Both the position numbers and the translations under genes were made by a program. Below, piece after piece: positions 3,284-43,922 of a stretch of 55,239 nt of DNA. The stretch comes from Candidatus Methylomirabilota bacterium. GTDB taxonomy: Bacteria > Methylomirabilota > Methylomirabilia > Rokubacteriales > CSP1-6. The stretch is from positions 1 to 55,239 of the forward strand of contig DATFVL010000062.1 of NCBI GenBank assembly GCA_035260325.1. Reading direction: 5' to 3'. The notes beneath the pieces were generated by a model. That model saw only the letters and a program-made list of their open reading frames with translations, was not told the origin of the DNA and did no database searches. How positions within the stretch are numbered: the stretch's first letter is position 1; each line of letters opens with the position of its first letter.

Positions 3284-4261
3284 ATGATCCTCGCGGGCGA
3301 CGTCGGCGGCACCAAGACCGCGCTCGCCCTCTACGAGGCGCGGGGCGGCGGGCTCGCGCCGGCGCGCGAGGCCGCGCTGCCGAGCCGCGAGTTCCCGACG
3401 TTCGAGGACGCCGTGGCGAGCTTCCTCGCCGCCGCGCCGCGCGGCGCGGTCGAGGCGGCGTGCTTCGGCGTGGCCGGGCCCGTGGTGAACGGGCGCTGCA
3501 TCGCGACGAACCTTCCCTGGGTCCTCGACGAGGCGACGCTCGCGTCCAGCATCCCGGCGAAGCGCGTGAGGCTCCTCAACGACCTCGAGGCCATGGGCCA
3601 CGGCGTCCTCGCGCTCGAGCCCGCGTCGCTCGCCACCCTCCAGGAGGGCGCGGTCCGGAAGGGCAACATGGCGCTGCTCGCCGCCGGCACCGGGCTCGGC
3701 GAAGCCCTGCTGGTCTGGAGCGGCGAGCGCCATCTCGTCGTCCGCTCTGAGGGCGGGCACGCGGACTTCGCGCCCCGGACGGACCTCGAGGTGGAGCTGC
3801 TCAGGTTCCTCCGCAAGGAGTTCGGGCGCGTGAGCTACGAGCGCGTGCTCTCCGGGCCGGGGCTCGTCAACATCTACCGCTTCCTGCGCGACACGGGAGA
3901 CGCTCCGGAGCCCGCGTGGCTCCGCGAGCGCCTCGAGCGCGAGGACCCGAGCGCCGTCGTCTCCGAGGTCGCGCTCGCGGGCAGCCACCCGCTCTGCGTC
4001 AGAGCACTCGAGCTGTTCGCGTCGATCTACGGCGCCGAGGCGGGCAACCTCGCCCTCAAGGCGTTCGCGGTCGGCGGCGTCTACGTCGGCGGCGGCATCG
4101 CGCCGAAGATCAGGGCGAAGCTCGCCGACGGCACGTTCGTCGCCGCGTTCTGCGACAAGGGCCGGTTCGCCGCGCTGATGGCGTCGATCCGCGTCTCGCT
4201 CGTCCTCGAGCCGCGGGCGGCGCTCCTGGGCGCCGCGCGCGTGGCGCGGGACCTGGTCTAG
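3284..4261 (+). CDS. glk: glucokinase
   Basis: ATG 3284 lies 5 nt after the aldolase stop. N-terminus [18 protein letters not shown] and [13 protein letters not shown] are typical of bacterial Glk. Confidence 0.85.
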
Positions 4262-4265
4262 CGGG

Positions 4266-6917
<2,652 letters not shown>

Positions 6918-37300: not shown

Positions 37301-37329
37301 TTACCACTGGCATCGAGCTTGCCTATCAT
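37301..37329 (+). promoter_or_regulatory. putative promoter for the PilB/MshE-like ATPase gene
   Basis: TTACCA (37301-37306), 17-nt spacer, TATCAT (37324-37329). If this promoter is used, the start codon would be ATG 37343 rather than 37328. Confidence 0.3.
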
Positions 37330-39157
37330 GGGATTCGCGACCATGAAGACGGCGCGGAAGGGCGACATCACGCAGCTGTTCGAGCTCGGGCGCTCCGAGG
37401 GGGACGGGAAGGCCTCCGCCGCTCCCCAGGGCCGCAACGGGAGCCAGAGCGCGGTGGGCCGCCGCTTCGGCGACCTGATCCTGGCGGATGGCCTCGTCAC
37501 GCAGGAACAGTTCGAGCAGGCGCTCGCCGAGCAGAAGAAGACCAACGAGAAGCTGGGCGAGATCCTCGTGCGCCTGGGGCTCATCACCGAGGAGCAGCTC
37601 GTCCACTTCCTGTCGCGCCAGTACGGCGTCCCCGAGGTCGCGTTCCCGGAGAAGATCGCGCCCGAGATCATCAAGCTGATCCCGGCGCGCATCGCGCGGA
37701 AGTACGGCGTCGCGCCCATCGGGCGGACGCTCGGCTCCGTCACCCTCGCCGTCGCCGACCCGACGAACCTCTCGGCGCTCGACGACGTCGCGTTCATGAC
37801 GGGCCTCAAGGTCGTGCCGGCGATCGCGTTGCCGTCCATCATCCGCCAGGCGATCGAGCACTACTACGAGAAGGCGCCGTCGACGATCGCCGACGCGCTC
37901 TCGGACGTCGAGGCGGAGGCGGCCGAGATCGAGCTCATCGAGGGTCAGCAGACCAACGCGAGCGTCGACCTCAACGCGCTGCGGTCGTCGGCCGACGAGG
38001 TGCCCGTCGTCCGGCTGGTGAACTCGATCCTCCTCGATGCGATGAGGCGGGACGCCTCCGACGTCCACATCGATCCGGGCGACGGGACCCTGACGATCAG
38101 GTACCGGATCGACGGCATCCTGCACGAGGTGATGGCGCCGCCCAAGCGCGTGGAGGCGGCGCTCGTGTCGCGGCTCAAGATCATGGCGAACCTCGACATC
38201 GCCGAACGGCGGCTCCCGCAGGACGGGCGCATCAAGCTCCGCCAGCATGGCCGCGAGATCGACTTCCGCGTCTCGATGGTGCCGTCGATCTTCGGTGAGA
38301 GCGTCGTGCTCCGGATCCTCGACAAGCAGGCGCTGAAGGCCGATCTGAGCCAGCTCGGATTCGAGCCCGCCGCGCTGGGCGAGTTCCAGAAGGCGGTCAA
38401 CGCCCCGCACGGCCTGATCGTCATCACCGGACCGACCGGCTCGGGCAAGACCACCACGCTCTACTCGGCGCTCAACACGATCAACGCGAAGGAACGGAAC
38501 ATCGTGACCGTCGAGGACCCCGTGGAGTACGAGCTGGCGGGCGCGACGCAGGTCCAGGTCTGCGACGAGATCGGCCGCACCTTCGGCGCCGCGCTCCGCT
38601 CGTTCCTCCGTCACGACCCCGACGTCATCCTCGTCGGCGAGATGCGCGACCAGGAGACGGCGCAGATCGCGGTGCGGGCGGCGCTGACGGGCCATCTCGT
38701 GCTGAGCACGCTCCACACGAACAGCGCCGGCGAGAGCATCTCGCGGCTGACGGACATGGGCGTCCCGCCCTTCCTCCTCTCCTCCTCGCTCCGCCTCGTC
38801 GTGGCGCAGCGGCTCGCGCGCAAGGTGTGCTACGAGTGCCGGGAGCCCTACGAGCTGGACGAGGAGAGCCTCATCCAGTACGGCCACACGCCCCTGGGCC
38901 TGGGTCGGCGCACCGTCTACAAGGGGAAGGGCTGCGCGACCTGCCACGAGACCGGGATGAAGGGGCGGGTCGCCCTCTACGAGGTGCTTCCGGTCACGCC
39001 GGAGATCCGCGGCCTCGTCCTCAACAGCACGTTCGCGGGTGAGATCCAGGACGTGGCGGCCAAGCAGGGCATGAAGACGCTGCGCGAGGCCGGCCTGCTC
39101 AAGGTGCTCCAGGGCGTCACGACGGTCGAGGAGGTCCTGCGCGTCACGAGCGAGTAG
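37328..39157 (+). CDS. GspE/PilB/MshE-family secretion ATPase with an N-terminal MshEN (T2SSE_N) domain
   Basis: Walker A GPTGSGKTTTLYSALN; Asp/His boxes LRHDPDVILVGEMRD..TGHLVLSTLHTN; C-terminal tetracysteine CYEC..CATC. In-frame ATGs at 37328 and 37343. Confidence 0.9.
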   Translation: MGFATMKTARKGDITQLFELGRSEGDGKASAAPQGRNGSQSAVGRRFGDLILADGLVTQEQFEQALAEQKKTNEKLGEILVRLGLITEEQLVHFLSRQYGVPEVAFPEKIAPEIIKLIPARIARKYGVAPIGRTLGSVTLAVADPTNLSALDDVAFMTGLKVVPAIALPSIIRQAIEHYYEKAPSTIADALSDVEAEAAEIELIEGQQTNASVDLNALRSSADEVPVVRLVNSILLDAMRRDASDVHIDPGDGTLTIRYRIDGILHEVMAPPKRVEAALVSRLKIMANLDIAERRLPQDGRIKLRQHGREIDFRVSMVPSIFGESVVLRILDKQALKADLSQLGFEPAALGEFQKAVNAPHGLIVITGPTGSGKTTTLYSALNTINAKERNIVTVEDPVEYELAGATQVQVCDEIGRTFGAALRSFLRHDPDVILVGEMRDQETAQIAVRAALTGHLVLSTLHTNSAGESISRLTDMGVPPFLLSSSLRLVVAQRLARKVCYECREPYELDEESLIQYGHTPLGLGRRTVYKGKGCATCHETGMKGRVALYEVLPVTPEIRGLVLNSTFAGEIQDVAAKQGMKTLREAGLLKVLQGVTTVEEVLRVTSE

Positions 39158-39221: not shown

Positions 39222-40919
39222 ATGACGTCGAACGCGGACGACCTCGCCCGGCATCTCGCCGAAATCACGGAGCGATTCGGGACGCTGGCGGCCGTGCTCG
39301 GCCAGGCGGCGCGCGAGCTGCAAGTCTCGGGGACGCTGCCGCCCGAGGCGCTGGCCGAGGCGCTCGGCGCCGCGCGCCGCGAGTTCCTCGAAATGCGCGC
39401 GGGCATCCTCGAGGCCGCGCGCGCGCTCTCGATCAACGCGCCGAGCGCGGCCGAGCTCGACAGCATCAAGAAGCTCGAGCCCCTGATCCGGGCGGTCATC
39501 GGCGCCATCGCCGTGGAGGAGACGCGGCAAGCGGCCGGGGAGGCCAGGAAGCGCGCCCTGGCCGTGCTCGACCGTGTCCTCGCGGTCACCCACACCGACG
39601 ATCCCGGCTTCGCTCCCCTGGTGCAGTGTCAGGCGAAGGCGAAAGAGCTCCGGCAGATCGTGAACGACCCGAAGACGCTCGAGACGGCCAACCCCGCGGC
39701 CATCGCCGAAGGCGCCGCGCCCTTCGCGAACCTGCTCACGCTGATCGAGGGCCGCGAGCAGCTCGATGACGAGCGCTTCGCCGCGCTCGAGGACAGCGTC
39801 AGTCACGCGTTCGGGCGCCAGATCGCCGTCGTCGCCACGCGCGGCAAGCTCGTGGTCGCGGGCGCCGCCACGGCCGCGCCCGCGCCGCCCCCCGCCGGGC
39901 GACCCGCGCCGCCGCCCAGGGCGGTCGCGGAGGCCCCGCGCCCGGCGGCGTCGCCCGCCGCTCCGGCTCCGCCGCCGCCCCCGCTCGTCGTCCAGGAGGT
40001 CGCGGTCACGCCGCGGCCTGTCAAGGAGGACGCGGGCGCCGCGCGGGCGGTGGAGCAGGCCGCCCAGGACGAAGCGGCGCAGTGGTGGGTCTCCGCGTGG
40101 GCCCGCTGGACGAGCTGGAAGAGCTCGATCTCGTTCAACGACGCGGTGAAGCAGGAGCTGCAGAAGTACTCCTACATCCTGAGCGTGCCGATCCAGAAGA
40201 GCACCGACTACGAGGAGGGGCTTCTCGCGTACGGCTACTCGATCCTGCTCGAGTTCGCCGAGAAGCAGAACCCGGGGCTCGTTAACAAGGCGCTCAACAG
40301 CCTGAAGACGTTCGCGCCCGGCCCGGGGAAGTCCGTCGGCACGCACCTCTACGACTTCCTCGTCACCGAGGGAAGGCTCGTCGAGCTCTACCCGGAGTTC
40401 GTGAAGAACGTGCTGGTCGCCGCGGTGCCGGAGCCCGGGCTGTGGACGCAGGCCCGCATCCTCGAGTCCACCGTCGAGACCCGCGTGTTCACGCATCCGA
40501 CCCCGCGGATCGGCGACACCGAGCACAACTCACAGCGCCTGACGCAGGACCGGCAGCGCTTCACCGACCACCGGTTCCAGGTCGCGATGGCGCCGCTGAC
40601 CGCGCGCTTCTTCGCGATCGCCGGCGACCTGCGCGAGCCGCGCTCGATCGACGTGAAGCTCGTGGACGGACGCAGCGACTCCGACCAGGCATGGCTCCTC
40701 ACCATGCCGCCCGCCGGACGCGCCGACCTCAAGTCGGAGCTCCTCCGGCTGGCGCCGGAGGGCACCTCGGTCCCCGGTCTCGGGAGGGACTACGCGACGC
40801 TCTGGGTCGCCGTGTTCAACACGGAGACCGCCGCCGAGAAGAAGTACGAGCTGGCGCTCGGGCTGCGGAAGGAAGGGGCGGCGAAGCCCGCCGCGACGTT
40901 CAGGTCCGCTCGGGCGTAA
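39222..40919 (+). CDS. hypothetical protein: helical N-domain, Pro/Ala-rich linker, unknown C-terminal domain
   Basis: 565-aa ORF with protein-like composition. Linker AAPAPPPAGRPAPPPRAVAEAPRPAASPAAPAPPPPP. The C-domain (WWVSAWARWTSWKSS..YSYILSVPIQKSTDYEEG..) matches no family I recognise. Confidence 0.7.
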   Translation: MTSNADDLARHLAEITERFGTLAAVLGQAARELQVSGTLPPEALAEALGAARREFLEMRAGILEAARALSINAPSAAELDSIKKLEPLIRAVIGAIAVEETRQAAGEARKRALAVLDRVLAVTHTDDPGFAPLVQCQAKAKELRQIVNDPKTLETANPAAIAEGAAPFANLLTLIEGREQLDDERFAALEDSVSHAFGRQIAVVATRGKLVVAGAATAAPAPPPAGRPAPPPRAVAEAPRPAASPAAPAPPPPPLVVQEVAVTPRPVKEDAGAARAVEQAAQDEAAQWWVSAWARWTSWKSSISFNDAVKQELQKYSYILSVPIQKSTDYEEGLLAYGYSILLEFAEKQNPGLVNKALNSLKTFAPGPGKSVGTHLYDFLVTEGRLVELYPEFVKNVLVAAVPEPGLWTQARILESTVETRVFTHPTPRIGDTEHNSQRLTQDRQRFTDHRFQVAMAPLTARFFAIAGDLREPRSIDVKLVDGRSDSDQAWLLTMPPAGRADLKSELLRLAPEGTSVPGLGRDYATLWVAVFNTETAAEKKYELALGLRKEGAAKPAATFRSARA

Positions 40920-40922
40920 CCC

Positions 40923-41297
40923 TCAGGCCTTCGGGCGCTCGGCGGCCTTCGGCGGCTCCCCCGCCTTCGCCGGCTCGGCGGCCTTCGGGGGCTCGCCGGG
41001 CCTCGCCGGGTGATCGCCGCCGGGGGTGCGCTCGAAGGGGCTCTTGCGCGGCGCGATGCCGAGCTTCGCGGCGACCTGGCCCATCGCCTGGGTGATGTCG
41101 TCCTTTTCGACGCGAAGCTGGTGGTTCTCCCGCCTGAGCTCCTCGACCTCTTTCTTCAGCTTCTCGACTTCCCTCTCGGCCGCGGCCGCCCGCTCGTTGA
41201 CGTGCGTCTCGCTGGCGAAGAGCTCGGGCAGGAGGGTAAAGAGCTGCCTGGTCTCCTCGATCCACTTGGTCACTCGCTCACGGGCTTCGGCAGCCAT
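40923..41297 (-). CDS. hypothetical coiled-coil protein with a PKAAE repeat tail
   Basis: ATG 41297 follows GAGGAG. Heptad-like AAAEREVEKLKKEVEELRRENHQLRVEKDD. Tail GEPPKAAEPAKAGEPPKAAERPKA. Its stop lies 3 nt from the convergent stop at 40919. Confidence 0.6.
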   Translation of the reverse strand: MAAEARERVTKWIEETRQLFTLLPELFASETHVNERAAAAEREVEKLKKEVEELRRENHQLRVEKDDITQAMGQVAAKLGIAPRKSPFERTPGGDHPARPGEPPKAAEPAKAGEPPKAAERPKA

Positions 41298-41380: not shown

Positions 41381-41737
41381 TCACCGCCGATAGCGCGTCT
41401 CGAAGAGCAGCACCCCGTGCGGCGAGCGGTACGGGCCGTGGCGCATGCCGGGCGGCCGGCAGGCGTACATCCCCGCGCTGAACGTCCGGCCCTTGCCGAG
41501 ATCGATCACGGAGCCCTCGAGGATCCAGACCTCCTCCCAGAAGTCGTGGGCGATCGTGTCCGGGGTTTCCGTGCCTGGCGCCATGCGGAGGAGGCGTGTG
41601 ACGTCGCCGGACAGTGGGTCACGGCTCAGGATTTTCTCCTCGATCCCCGGGCCCCCGGCGCCCGTGTCGGGCGAGCCCGCGACGGGCCGCCACGGCAGGT
41701 CGTCGGGGCGGAAGAACTCGAGCTCGGGCTTCGGCAC
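41381..41737 (-). CDS. cupin domain protein (ChrR-like cupin_7 by resemblance)
   Basis: GTG 41737 lies 2 nt after the redoxin stop. HDFWEEVWILEGSVIDLGKGRTFSAGMYACRPPGMRHGP. Confidence 0.7.
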   Translation of the reverse strand: MPKPELEFFRPDDLPWRPVAGSPDTGAGGPGIEEKILSRDPLSGDVTRLLRMAPGTETPDTIAHDFWEEVWILEGSVIDLGKGRTFSAGMYACRPPGMRHGPYRSPHGVLLFETRYRR

Positions 41738-41739
41738 CC

Positions 41740-42282
41740 TCAGGGCTTCTTGGGGAGCGCCAGCAGGTCCTGGACGAGCTTGCGGGCCGCCGGCTTGTCC
41801 CAGTCCCGCGGGCCCACCATGCGGGCGATCAGACGCCCCTGGCGGTCGACGAGGTACGCGGTCGGCGGGCCGAAGACGCCATAGGCCTTGCCGGTCACGT
41901 CACCCCTCTCGTCCAGCAGCACGGGCGCGACGTAGCCGCGCTCGGCGACCGTGCGCCTGACGAGCGCCGGATCCTCACGGAAGCTGATCAGCCGCACCTC
42001 GAGCCCCTGCTTCCTGAGCTCCCCGTATAGCCGGTTGACGGAAGGTAACTCCTCCCGGCAGTCCGGTCACCACGTGGTCCAGAAGACGAGGAGCACCACC
42101 TTGCCGCGCAGGTCGGCGAGGGTGACGGTTTTCCCTTGGAGGTCCGGCAGGGCGAAGTCCGGCGCGGGCTTCGGCGGGTCGTAGCGCTGGATGCCGAGGC
42201 TCGCAAAGTCCGCCGCCGCGGCGCCGGCGGCGAACGCCAGGAGCGCCAGGACGAGTGCGCCCGCGCCGAGGCGCCGCGCCAT
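41740..42282 (-). CDS. exported TlpA/ResA-like thiol:disulfide oxidoreductase, predicted selenoprotein (UxxC; TGA 42067-42069 read as Sec)
   Basis: ORFs 42067-42282 and 41740-41997 are in the same frame. Hand translation across the gap gives [45 protein letters not shown]. The family motif is FWxxWCxxC. Signal peptide [24 protein letters not shown]. Confidence 0.75.
42031..42066 (-). promoter_or_regulatory. SECIS-like stem-loop immediately 3' of the redoxin UGA
   Basis: RNA CCGG-AC-UG-C-CGGGAGG-AGUUA-CCUUCCG-U-CA-A-CCGG. There is a 7-bp apical stem (one G-U pair), loop AGUUA starting 19 nt after the U of UGA, plus 2-bp and 4-bp lower stems. Confidence 0.45.
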
Positions 42283-42833
42283 CAGGCGCCCGATGCCTTG
42301 AAGGCCGCCAGGACCTCCTCAGGGTTCAGGAGATCGAGCGCGTTGTCCTGGATCTTGATGTACTTGACGATGCCGTTCCGATCGATGATGAAATAGGTGC
42401 GCTTCGCGTACCGGAAGATCGGGCTCTTCTCGTCCGTGACCATCGCGCCCCACACCGGCAGCATCTGGCGGCGGAAGTCGGACAGGAGGAGGTGCTTGAT
42501 CGGGTTCTGCTTGGCCCACCCGGCGAGCGTCGCCTGGTGGTCAGCGCTCACGCCCACGACCTGGGCGCCCGCGGCCTCGAACTGCGCGTGGAGCGCGTCG
42601 AAGCCGAGGATCTCCTTCGTTCAGGTGGGGGTGAAGGCCTGGATCACGGTGTACAGGACGACCGGGCCCTTGGCCGTGAGCTCGGAGAGCTTGACGGGCT
42701 TGCCGTCCACGCCGAGCAGCGCGAAGTCGGGCGCCTTCTGGCCCACCTCGAGCGCGCTCGCGGCGCCGGCGGAGACCAGGACGACGAGCAGGCCCCAGAG
42801 CAGGGCGTGCACGACTGAACGCTTGGATCGCAT
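42282..42833 (-). CDS. exported peroxiredoxin (AhpC/TSA-BCP type), predicted selenoprotein (TGA 42621-42623 read as Sec at the peroxidatic position)
   Basis: ORFs 42621-42833 and 42282-42557 are in the same frame. Hand translation gives [43 protein letters not shown], where the family has (F)TP(T/G)C(T/S)xE. Signal peptide [34 protein letters not shown] precedes ATG 42833. Confidence 0.75.
42573..42605 (-). promoter_or_regulatory. SECIS-candidate stem-loop 3' of the peroxiredoxin UGA
   Basis: RNA GGCUUCGA-C-GCGC-UCCAC-GCGC-AGU-UCGAGGCC. There is an 8-bp lower stem (one G-U pair), a 4-bp upper stem, and an apical loop 31 nt after the U of UGA. The loop lacks the usual G, so confidence is lower. 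Confidence 0.35.
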
Positions 42834-42896
42834 GGGAGGCCTCCTTGGGCTGACTACGGGATGAACGGCCGGCGCCGTCGCCGGGTTCCCCTCACA

Positions 42897-43922
42897 TCAT
42901 CGCTTGCCGGTCAATTCGCGCCGCACGAGCGCGGCGCCCGCGGCCAGCCCCGCGAGCTTCTGGTTGCACATGTACCGCGGCGACCAGCCGAAGCCGCAGT
43001 CGGGGTTGACCGTGAGCTTCTCCGGCGGGCAGACCTGGAGCACCCTGCGGACGCGGCGCGCCACGTCCTCGGCCGTGTCCTGCGCGAAGCCCTTGACGTC
43101 CACGACGCCGGCGCCGAGCTCGCGCCCCTCGCCGTACCGCTTCCAGAGATCGAGCTCGGCCAGCTCGCGGCTCGCGAACTCCAGCACGAACTGGTGGGCG
43201 CGCGATTTCAGGATCCCCGGGAAGTAGGGCTCGTAGGTCCGCTGGAAGCGCGAGCGACCGAACCGGTTGCCGAAGCAAACGTGGAAGGCGAGCTTCACGT
43301 CGATCCCCGCCGTGGCGAGGTTGAACAGGCGCGCCATCTCCTCCCCGGAGACGTTGCCGCGCGCCGGCTCATCGATCTGGATGAGGTCGGCGCCCGCGGC
43401 CACGAGACCGTGGAGCTCCTGATTGATGACCTCGGCGAAGCGCTCGGCCACGTCCACGACACCCGTGTAGACCTTGCCCGGATGGATCCGCGAGCCGAAC
43501 GTCAACGGGCCCGCGCACGTCGCCTTGGTGTGCCGCGTCGTGTGCTTCTTGAGGTACTCGAACTCGCGCACGATGCCGAGCCCGGCGGGGGGCGTCTCGA
43601 TGCGCCCGACCGCCTCGTAGCGCGTCTGCTGGTCGTACCCCCAGGGACCCGCCTTGCGCCGCACGGGGAGCGGCTCGATGCCCTTGATGATCGCGTAGTA
43701 CGAGTCAACGTAGCCGTCGAGCCGGCGGACCTCGCCGTCGGTGAGGATGTCGATGCCGGCGGTCTCCATGTCGCGGACCGCCGTGTGCACGGCGTCGTCG
43801 AGCATCTCGTCGAGGTCGCCGGGCCCGAGCTCCCCCTGTTCCCAGGCCTTGACGGCGGCGAACCACCAGCCCGGCCTGCCGTGGGAGCCCACGACGGCGG
43901 TCGGGATCAGCGGCAGCGTCAT
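42897..43922 (-). CDS. cobalamin-independent methionine synthase (MetE C-terminal domain-like / methionine synthase II family)
   Basis: LIPTAVVGSHGRPGWW..DILTDGEVRR..ADLIQIDEPA..AFHVCFGN..VNPDCGFG. Confidence 0.8.
   Translation of the reverse strand: MTLPLIPTAVVGSHGRPGWWFAAVKAWEQGELGPGDLDEMLDDAVHTAVRDMETAGIDILTDGEVRRLDGYVDSYYAIIKGIEPLPVRRKAGPWGYDQQTRYEAVGRIETPPAGLGIVREFEYLKKHTTRHTKATCAGPLTFGSRIHPGKVYTGVVDVAERFAEVINQELHGLVAAGADLIQIDEPARGNVSGEEMARLFNLATAGIDVKLAFHVCFGNRFGRSRFQRTYEPYFPGILKSRAHQFVLEFASRELAELDLWKRYGEGRELGAGVVDVKGFAQDTAEDVARRVRRVLQVCPPEKLTVNPDCGFGWSPRYMCNQKLAGLAAGAALVRRELTGKR

Follow-up and report, generated by a model that had tools for sequence, protein, structure and literature searches.

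The stretch of DNA analysed here, hereafter the window, comprises the 55,239 nucleotides of contig DATFVL010000062.1 (GenBank assembly GCA_035260325.1, forward strand) from a Candidatus Methylomirabilota bacterium; it has a GC content of approximately 71%, and its closest relatives are metagenome-assembled genomes (MAGs) of Methylomirabilota/Rokubacteria, at 60-79% protein identity. On its minus strand, downstream of a MetE-like gene, lie three tightly packed genes encoding a peroxiredoxin (Prx)-like protein, a TlpA/ResA-like redoxin and a Cupin_7 protein (Table 1). Pfam assigns AhpC-TSA/Redoxin domains to the Prx (E=1.2e-29) and the redoxin (2e-26), and Cupin_7 to the third gene (4.5e-11). 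The first two genes each carry an in-frame TGA at the position of a catalytic cysteine, and it is this pair, denoted Prx(U) and redoxin(U) for their putative selenocysteine (Sec) residues, that concerns us here. An earlier prediction made from the sequence alone (the original prediction) described the three genes as tightly coupled and opened by a single AAGGAGG-ATG, and the coordinates bear out both statements: the Prx stop codon TGA (42284..42282) and the redoxin ATG (42282..42280) have one base in common, the redoxin stop lies at 41742..41740, and the cupin GTG (41737) follows 2 nt later. A strong Shine-Dalgarno sequence is found at the equivalent site in nearly all Prx orthologues.

Table 1. 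Features of the redox gene pair and its surroundings (window coordinates).
Feature	Position	Strand	Details
Cupin_7 (ChrR-type cupin domain) gene	41381..41737	minus	118 codons; GTG start; cytoplasmic
Exported TlpA/ResA-like redoxin gene	41740..42282	minus	180 residues; W-U72-P-D-C75
SECIS-like hairpin, redoxin mRNA	42036..42060	minus	core 42057..42039, CGGGAGG-AGUUA-CCUUCCG
UGA of Sec72, N-terminal nucleophile of CxxC	42067..42069	minus	motif W-U-PDC; TGA conserved in orthologues
Predicted redoxin signal peptide	42211..42282	minus	about residues 1-22/24; AAA/DF or AGA/A sites
Exported 1-Sec peroxiredoxin-like gene, PrxQ/BCP-like	42282..42833	minus	183 residues; U71
SECIS-like hairpin, Prx mRNA	42574..42604	minus	7-bp lower stem, 4-5-bp upper stem; begins 17 nt after UGA
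UGA of Sec71, peroxidatic position	42621..42623	minus	motif FTPT-U-TKE; TGA conserved; aligns with Cys of homologues
Predicted Prx signal peptide	42753..42833	minus	residues 1-27; predicted cleavage ASA/LEVGQ
Shine-Dalgarno AAGGAGG	42840..42846	minus	6 nt before Prx ATG at 42833; read directly
ECF-sigma-type promoter-like motif GGAACC-N17-GTT	42864..42889	minus	ends 30 nt before Prx ATG, in the 63-nt gap between the MetE-like and Prx genes
MetE-like (Meth_synt_2) gene	42897..43922	minus	upstream neighbour of Prx gene

Selenocysteine codons and their hairpins

A six-frame scan of the window for TGA codons with 40 or more codons on either side whose GC content at the third and second positions (GC3 and GC2) is gene-like returned these two in-frame TGAs only. 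At the Prx site, TGA is present in 71 of 71 distinct orthologous sequences and in 62 further loci from an independent scan, and Sec71 aligns with the cysteine of peroxiredoxins in the PDB and of true Cys-form homologues (P0014, P0019, P0020 and P0022; 51-55% identity). At the redoxin site, TGA is found in all 83 distinct orthologues, and in 15 loci of a second, proteobacterial-type clade that is introduced below. The catalytic-position TGA is thereby kept in more than 150 orthologous genes, in which frame, coding bias and domain carry on past it.

Both codons are followed by hairpins resembling a selenocysteine insertion sequence (SECIS). When pairs of the Prx hairpin were counted on an explicit structure, 88.7-94.8% of cells were paired, four to five pairs showed compensatory changes, and the covariation score was matched by none of 500 shuffles; RNAalifold, applied to 72 Prx sequences, returned no consensus structure. 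The redoxin hairpin presents GU in its apical loop 20-23 nt after the UGA, and 96.6% of its cells are paired across 84 sequences, with no broken pair in its 6-bp core, three covarying positions (G-U/G-C/A-U, G-C↔A-U and A-U↔G-C), and an invariant loop, AGUUR. The leucine codon within this loop is TTA or TTG in 84 of 84 genes, compared with a TTR share of 1.5% among the leucine codons of window genes, which points to strong constraint at the RNA level. Hairpins of the proteobacterial-type clade occupy the same position, with a different sequence and compensatory changes of their own.

Some observations would suit the view that the TGAs are ordinary stops, that the genes are pseudogenes, or that TGA is reassigned, such that the fragments are separate or truncated products. 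Gene callers cut each gene in two; the window encodes no tRNA of any kind, and hence no tRNA-Sec, and tblastn searches of the window with SelA, SelB and SelD of Escherichia coli returned nothing at E<=1e-3, as expected from the earlier statement that no sel genes lie there; further, some JGI gene calls place Trp at the TGA. We nevertheless consider this view almost certainly wrong, given the occurrence of TGA at the exact catalytic position across so many orthologues, with continuation of frame and domain, and the conserved, covarying hairpins after both codons. The JGI proteins with Trp at the Sec site read through their true stops as well, which identifies the variants as code-4 miscalls. 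Global reassignment of TGA was rejected, as TGA ends 28 of the 43 called genes in the window and is the main true stop codon there. One Methylomirabilota MAG has 63 predicted selenoproteins, and the phylum is reported to be rich in selenoproteins and to decode Sec (PMC13188914). The conserved TGAs at catalytic cysteine sites, together with the covarying hairpins, indicate that both are genuine Sec codons, and in this respect the original prediction was correct.

Public annotations split both genes into fragments of 70-110 residues or read TGA as Trp past the true stop (JGI proteins P0001-P0006 and P0010, and loci L081-L086, are among such cases), such that the candidate envelope system discussed below is invisible in the annotation of Methylomirabilota and Burkholderiales-labelled MAGs. 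Additional selenoprotein candidates with an in-frame TGA were encountered in Rokubacteria-like and other loci, at L004 (7376..6840, minus strand), L061 (3857-4531; 3875..3330, minus strand; 4528-5034), and L046 and L078 (~4000-4500); they comprise a second TlpA-like redoxin (FWHST-U), a cytoplasmic Prx-like protein (GRW-U), two OsmC-like proteins and membrane-anchored Prx-like proteins (YW-U-PFC). In an Armatimonadota MAG (L068, 2935-3951), the gene of a SelD homologue immediately precedes a Cys-type Prx/redoxin-like gene.

The two redox proteins and their signal peptides

The closest sequence to the Prx in the PDB is the BCP of Aeropyrum pernix (2cx3; E=1.5e-21). An AlphaFold2 model was made of the Cys homologue P0014 rather than of the window protein (mean predicted local distance difference test score, pLDDT, of 88), and Bcp4, PrxQ and AhpE are its top Foldseek matches (TM-scores of 0.81-0.90, normalised to the target). 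The motif T68-P-T-U71 aligns to S-P-V-C of 2cx3, and TxxU is kept in orthologues of both clades, the Cys homologue P0014 having Ala at the Thr position; Arg145 (AKRTYFIID) aligns to AKRAVFIV of 2cx3 and is invariant in the family alignment. The window Prx contains no cysteine, and no family member has a second one in its mature protein, from which it follows that the Prx is a 1-Sec (or 1-Cys) enzyme that would need an outside resolving partner.

The redoxin belongs, by sequence comparison, to the TlpA/ResA/DsbE group. Its best PDB matches are 3kcm (1e-29), ResA (4nmu) and TlpA (1jfu), with E-values from 1e-29 to 6e-20; W71-U72-P-D-C75 aligns to WCPPC of 3kcm and WCKPC of ResA 4nmu, with Sec in place of the first cysteine, and FGPPTAY aligns to TGVPETF in the cis-Pro loop. 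Beyond the active-site Cys75, the protein has no cysteine.

Signal peptides were judged by heuristic tripartite analysis and by conservation. Both N-termini combine a basic n-region, a 10-residue hydrophobic maximum of ~3.0 (Kyte-Doolittle) and AxA-type sites, none of which features is found in the cupin or the MetE-like protein. Each of the 21 examined Prx N-termini shows this architecture, as do nearly all of the 77 distinct redoxin N-termini, in which small residues precede a conserved PDF; signal peptides are present on both proteins in the proteobacterial-type clade too. Relative to cytoplasmic BCP structures, the Prx signal constitutes an N-terminal extension, the mature domain beginning where those structures begin; the corresponding region of the P0014 model is of low pLDDT. 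As the window redoxin starts MARR, export via the twin-arginine translocation (Tat) system was considered, and dismissed for want of conservation: only 23 of 77 redoxin signal peptides contain the RR pair, and eight a Tat-like motif, making a signal for the general secretory (Sec-type) pathway the better reading. Heuristics and orthologue conservation thus agree with the signal peptides originally predicted for both redox proteins, which look exported by the Sec-type route.

Conservation of the pair, its promoter motif and its neighbours

Gene neighbourhoods were surveyed in a redoxin-centred sample of 80 loci from GTDB species representatives, which was pooled with the first scan for the removal of duplicates, and in an independent Prx-centred sample. 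Prx(U) lies immediately upstream of redoxin(U), often with overlapping stop and start codons, in 61 of 81 assessable cases, two further redoxin(U) genes being at contig ends; counted from the Prx(U) side, the same sample holds 61 paired genes, 11 unpaired, and one at a contig edge. The Prx-centred sample gave a similar picture (46 of 60 assessable genes paired, 14 unpaired and two at an edge), and pairing characterizes ~75% of loci in Methylomirabilota (Rokubacteria). In the second clade, comprising MAGs labelled Betaproteobacteria/Burkholderiales, Gammaproteobacteria, Planctomycetota and Entotheonellaceae, the order is reversed, with redoxin(U) preceding an adjacent Prx(U) in every one of the 15 loci that could be assessed (L244-L260); here too both genes have TGA and signal peptides, and the Prx has Ile at position -7 relative to Sec and no Cys. 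The label Chitinophaga pinensis on one contig of this clade probably reflects misbinning, as do, probably, those of several Rokubacteria-like contigs (Binatia, Nitrosotalea, Verrucomicrobiia and Acidoferrum). Because adjacency recurs in two separate clades and in two gene orders, we consider, from comparative genomics, that the pair is a conserved functional module; its translationally coupled, conserved pairing would fit a peroxidase and an extracytoplasmic reductant.

Unpaired Prx genes belong mostly to one derived clade, nested among paired ones, whose genomes (AR14, AR31, AR28, AR22 and others) retain redoxin(U) at the syntenic position of the window, adjoining a coiled-coil gene and a 565-residue gene. 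In seven loci with unpaired Prx(U) (L002, L003, L010, L011, L013, L017 and L019), the Prx is followed by a conserved gene of ~137 residues (~4560-4990), whose product resembles a lipoprotein at its N-terminus and has neither a Pfam match nor a redox motif. Cys-type Prx homologues may likewise have an adjoining partner: in L176 a member of the same redoxin family follows with a 4-nt overlap, and in L178 the following gene encodes an exported classical thioredoxin, an analogue that has taken the place of the partner.

Upstream of the Prx gene lies a motif of the type recognized by extracytoplasmic function (ECF) sigma factors. GGAAC-N17-19-GTT was detected in 43 of 68 distinct 150-nt regions upstream of Prx(U), paired or not, whereas dinucleotide shuffles yielded 0.375 motif-bearing regions on average and three at most; in orthologues it lies 20-60 nt before the Prx(U) start (L001-L020, L098-L175). 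Across the whole window three matches occur against 1.4 expected, and the single occurrence is not significant alone. The motif accompanies the Prx gene and is carried by only two of 18 unpaired redoxin genes; most of the proteobacterial-type clade lacks it and shows TAGAAT-like -10 boxes. The upstream motif equals the sigmaE/sigmaH consensus GGAAC-N18-19-GTT, which is associated with cell-surface, heat and oxidative stress in Corynebacterium and Mycobacterium (PMC10012870), and this match supports a stress-type ECF promoter belonging to the operon itself. The spacer of the window motif forms an inverted repeat (CCGGCG-ACGG-CGCCGG; 42868-42883, minus strand) directly after the MetE-like stop, which could be a terminator of the upstream gene, or an operator. 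A scan for sigma-70 promoters and intrinsic terminators provided nothing useful.

The original prediction further grouped the cupin with the two redox genes, and the idea that the three proteins act as one three-component system draws on the 2-nt distance between redoxin stop and cupin start, and on the same order in several loci (L001/L098, L099, L014, L116, L142, L157 and L162). The cupin domain in the window is of the ChrR type, which is part of an ECF anti-sigma factor, and the operon itself lies behind an ECF-type promoter. The neighbourhood survey upholds the pair and largely refutes the triad: the cupin follows the redoxin in seven of 77 assessable loci, is present in five of 62 loci of the independent sample (~8-9% of loci), and was not found in the proteobacterial-type clade. 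It occurs only in loci with the MetE-like gene (8/18, as opposed to 0/77 without; Fisher p=3.6e-7), and in L108 (851-2299) it lies 4 nt after that gene, with another gene separating it from the redox pair. Having no signal peptide, it would also sit in a different compartment. We therefore rejected the cupin as a relay component, and rate the chance of a three-component system as very slim. These patterns suggest instead that the cupin and MetE-like genes belong to each other, with the Prx-redoxin cassette lodged between them; in the window, the cupin is adjacent to, and probably co-transcribed with, the redox pair.

On the far side of the cupin, the window encodes a 124-residue coiled-coil protein (40923-41297, minus strand) and a 565-residue protein without a Pfam match (39222-40919, plus strand), adjoined by a T2SSE/MshEN ATPase gene (37319-39157, plus strand). 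The coiled-coil and 565-residue genes are syntenic with redoxin(U) in many genomes, even where the Prx is located elsewhere.

A candidate selenium-based relay in the cell envelope

We propose, with moderate confidence, that the two-gene operon, governed by an ECF-sigma-type stress promoter, encodes a selenium-based peroxide-reduction relay of the cell envelope. Sec would be inserted at the UGA of both proteins under the direction of the downstream hairpin, and both would be exported by their Sec-type signal peptides. Sec71, as the sole redox residue of the Prx, would attack peroxide to form a selenenic acid (Sec71-Se⁻ + ROOH → Sec71-SeOH). As the Prx has no resolving cysteine, resolution would fall to the partner redoxin, whose Sec72 (in W-U-P-D-C) would attack the selenenic acid and give rise to a mixed Se-Se intermediate; this would in turn be resolved by Cys75, leaving an intramolecular Se-S bond in the redoxin. 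A DsbD/CcdA/ScsB-type electron transporter of the membrane, its gene located at another place in the genome, would then re-reduce the redoxin, and the cupin and MetE-like proteins would be cytoplasmic neighbours outside the relay. Of these elements, selenoprotein status, export signals, fold and family, the lack of further cysteines, the conserved gene pairing and the promoter motif are borne out by the sequences; peroxidase activity, the course and chemistry of the relay, its electron donor and its induction by stress are inferred.

The closest characterized system is the ScsB → TlpA → PprX pathway of Caulobacter crescentus, with which peroxide reduction in the envelope of bacteria was first discovered (Cho et al., mBio 2012, PMC3322552), and in which TlpA reduces the periplasmic PrxQ-type PprX (PMC3322552). 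By analogy, the window encodes a signal-bearing PrxQ/BCP-type Prx and an exported TlpA-family protein which may serve as its direct reductant in the oxidizing milieu of the envelope. Differences are nonetheless considerable, in that both active-site nucleophiles are Sec here; the window Prx has a lone redox residue, whereas PprX, as it is described, forms an intramolecular disulfide between two distant cysteines; PprX has the Pro of the PxxxTxxC motif and the window Prx does not; the window genes are joined in one operon, with two alternative orders across clades, and an ECF-type promoter; and no ScsB/DsbD gene was found near the window pair.

Several observations weigh against the proposed relay. 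All relatives of the window genes come from MAGs, and the signal peptides are judged heuristically. Folding energy alone is unremarkable for the window hairpins (z = -1.6 and -0.2), and Rfam, at gathering thresholds and at permissive E-values, returned no match to SECIS or any other family, such that support for the hairpins derives from comparison between sequences. Neither the Prx nor the redoxin reaches an NCBIfam equivalog cut-off. Redoxin(U) stands without an adjacent Prx in 20 of 83 cases, mostly also without the ECF motif, which suggests that this protein probably has other clients; thus, of the peroxidase with a dedicated reductant that was originally envisaged, the conserved pairing stands, and the dedication is overstated. 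In an ungapped alignment to FFPAAFSPVC of 2cx3, Ile64 (position -7; codon 42642-42644) replaces the Pro of PxxxTxxC, and the residue at this position is Ile, Val, Leu or Met throughout the family, in Sec and Cys forms and in both clades. With respect to the electron donor, Pfam searches within ±10 kb revealed no DsbD/CcdA-type protein, and tblastn with E. coli DsbD against the window and the family loci (~1.4 Mb) found none, a search which a distant CcdA could escape.

The missing Pro has been called absolutely conserved in peroxiredoxins (PMC3322552), and the motif of Sec-containing Prx is likewise given as PxxxTxxU (PMC13188914). Sec-PrxQ genes in MAGs of Binatia, Brocadiaceae and Acidobacteria (L036, L055, L062) encode the Pro and no signal peptide, and that of L036 has a resolving cysteine (UxxxxC). 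In the absence of the motif Pro family-wide, we assign the window Prx to a divergent subfamily of the Prx fold rather than to canonical peroxiredoxins; its catalysis may differ from theirs, and the case for peroxidase activity is weakened accordingly. The pair could then be a protein-directed, extracytoplasmic selenol/thiol-disulfide oxidoreductase couple, possibly reducing sulfenylated or disulfide-trapped envelope proteins, or acting in copper or cytochrome maturation as do TlpA/ResA/CcmG, with a Prx-fold protein devoid of peroxidase activity. Precedent exists in Caulobacter PrxL, which is also ScsB-dependent and has no detectable peroxidase activity (PMC3322552), and the versatility of TlpA-family proteins, which serve several clients, is compatible with such a role, as are the frequently solitary redoxin and the failure of both proteins to reach a curated equivalog cut-off. 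The window Prx, however, keeps Thr68, Sec at the peroxidatic position and Arg145, all of which PrxL lacks (PMC3322552). Moreover, the sequences and structures nearest to it are without exception those of true peroxidases, the 1-Cys AhpE among them, and a lone redox residue is typical of 1-Cys peroxidases and not of disulfide reductases. We consider such an oxidoreductase couple unlikely.

The lack of a linked reductant gene in ~1.4 Mb of related loci bears on a further alternative, in which the flow of electrons is reversed: the Prx would pass the oxidizing equivalent of peroxide via the redoxin into envelope proteins, generating disulfides, and no DsbD-type reductant would be needed. The transfer from Prx4 or GPx7 to protein disulfide isomerase in the endoplasmic reticulum is an analogue of such an oxidative relay, and a 1-Sec Prx with a UxxC partner is chemically compatible with it. 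Characterized TlpA/ResA-type proteins are, on the other hand, reductants, an ECF stress promoter is more in keeping with defence than with housekeeping folding, and nothing in the data directly supports this direction; an oxidative function therefore appears highly unlikely. In a Gammaproteobacteria MAG (L094, 2097-4402), a DsbD homologue is directly followed by a Cys-type TlpA-like redoxin, in the classical donor-acceptor arrangement that the present pair lacks.

A bolder form of the peroxide-reduction proposal is that the operon encodes an all-selenium envelope relay, the first in bacteria, in which a 1-Sec peroxidase is resolved via an intermolecular diselenide with a Sec-containing redoxin. 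Were this so, selenium may have been selected because the selenenic acid resists irreversible over-oxidation, in a compartment without ATP or repair enzymes, and the relay may work without a DsbD-type donor by feeding peroxide-derived oxidizing equivalents into envelope folding. We regard this version as tentative and rather unlikely.

Returning to the selenium-based peroxide-reduction relay that we favour, its components have recognizable relatives. Sec-containing Prx (TxxU) and 'Prx-like thiol:disulfide oxidoreductase' (UxxC) are already catalogued selenoprotein families (PMC9312934). The window Prx has the AhpC-TSA fold and peroxidatic Sec of the former, which includes PrxU of Eubacterium acidaminophilum (PMC9312934, PMC13188914), and departs from catalogued PxxxTxxU members in being exported, and in having neither the Pro nor any Cys. 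The redoxin, by virtue of its domain, UxxC motif and TlpA/ResA-like character, fits the 'Prx-like thiol:disulfide oxidoreductase' (UxxC/UxxU, pfam00578) or 'Redoxin family' selenoproteins, which are known solely as entries of bioinformatic catalogues (Kryukov & Gladyshev 2004, as listed in PMC9312934); for the UxxC families, the literature searched contained no description of pairing with an exported Sec-containing Prx or of an envelope location. AhpE of Mycobacterium tuberculosis (PDB 1xxu, 4x0x), to which the P0014 model has a target-normalised TM-score of 0.90, similarly combines a lone redox residue with an external resolver. For AhpE, this partner is mycoredoxin-1/mycothiol. Unlike the window Prx, AhpE is cytoplasmic, employs Cys, retains the canonical Pro, and lacks a redoxin partner in its operon.

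Operons with several selenoprotein genes are also known, among them grdAB, prdBC, frhAD-hdrA, Prx/SelW, Prx-like/AhpD-like, SAO and Tso, and one ocean metagenome (GOS) read with neighbouring 'Prx/Prx-like 2' selenoprotein genes has been noted (PMC13188914, PMC2398784). The window operon resembles these in joining two selenoprotein genes in what is presumed to be one redox pathway; these sources do not describe an exported module of Prx(U) and TlpA-like redoxin(U), its spread over multiple phyla or its occurrence in two gene orders (PMC13188914, PMC2398784). Selenoproteins that carry signal peptides and are exported have already been predicted or reported (bioRxiv 10.1101/2022.07.06.499078), the MccSep preprint being among the sources. 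We found no description of the exported module or of its distribution in the literature searched, the scope of which excluded a groundwater-MAG survey. The original characterization of the system as unusual and uncharacterized overstates its novelty given that a TlpA → Prx pathway, the constituent families and exported selenoproteins are all known. The pair is, in our assessment, a widespread and systematically mis-annotated two-selenoprotein system of the envelope, and not a categorically new one.

If the favoured reading is right, this pair represents a selenium-dependent counterpart of the only characterized periplasmic peroxide-reduction pathway, in the form of a compact two-gene module that is kept in more than 100 genome loci of soil and groundwater lineages. 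Were the bolder, all-selenium version true, soil bacteria would possess a widespread selenium-dependent defence against envelope stress under ECF control. The existence of the same fold in both Sec and Cys forms, with one redox residue per peroxidase and a defined partner, provides a natural system for asking why Sec is used over Cys. The pair would also make it possible to study how Sec-containing proteins cross the Sec translocon, and perhaps to examine an intermolecular diselenide intermediate.

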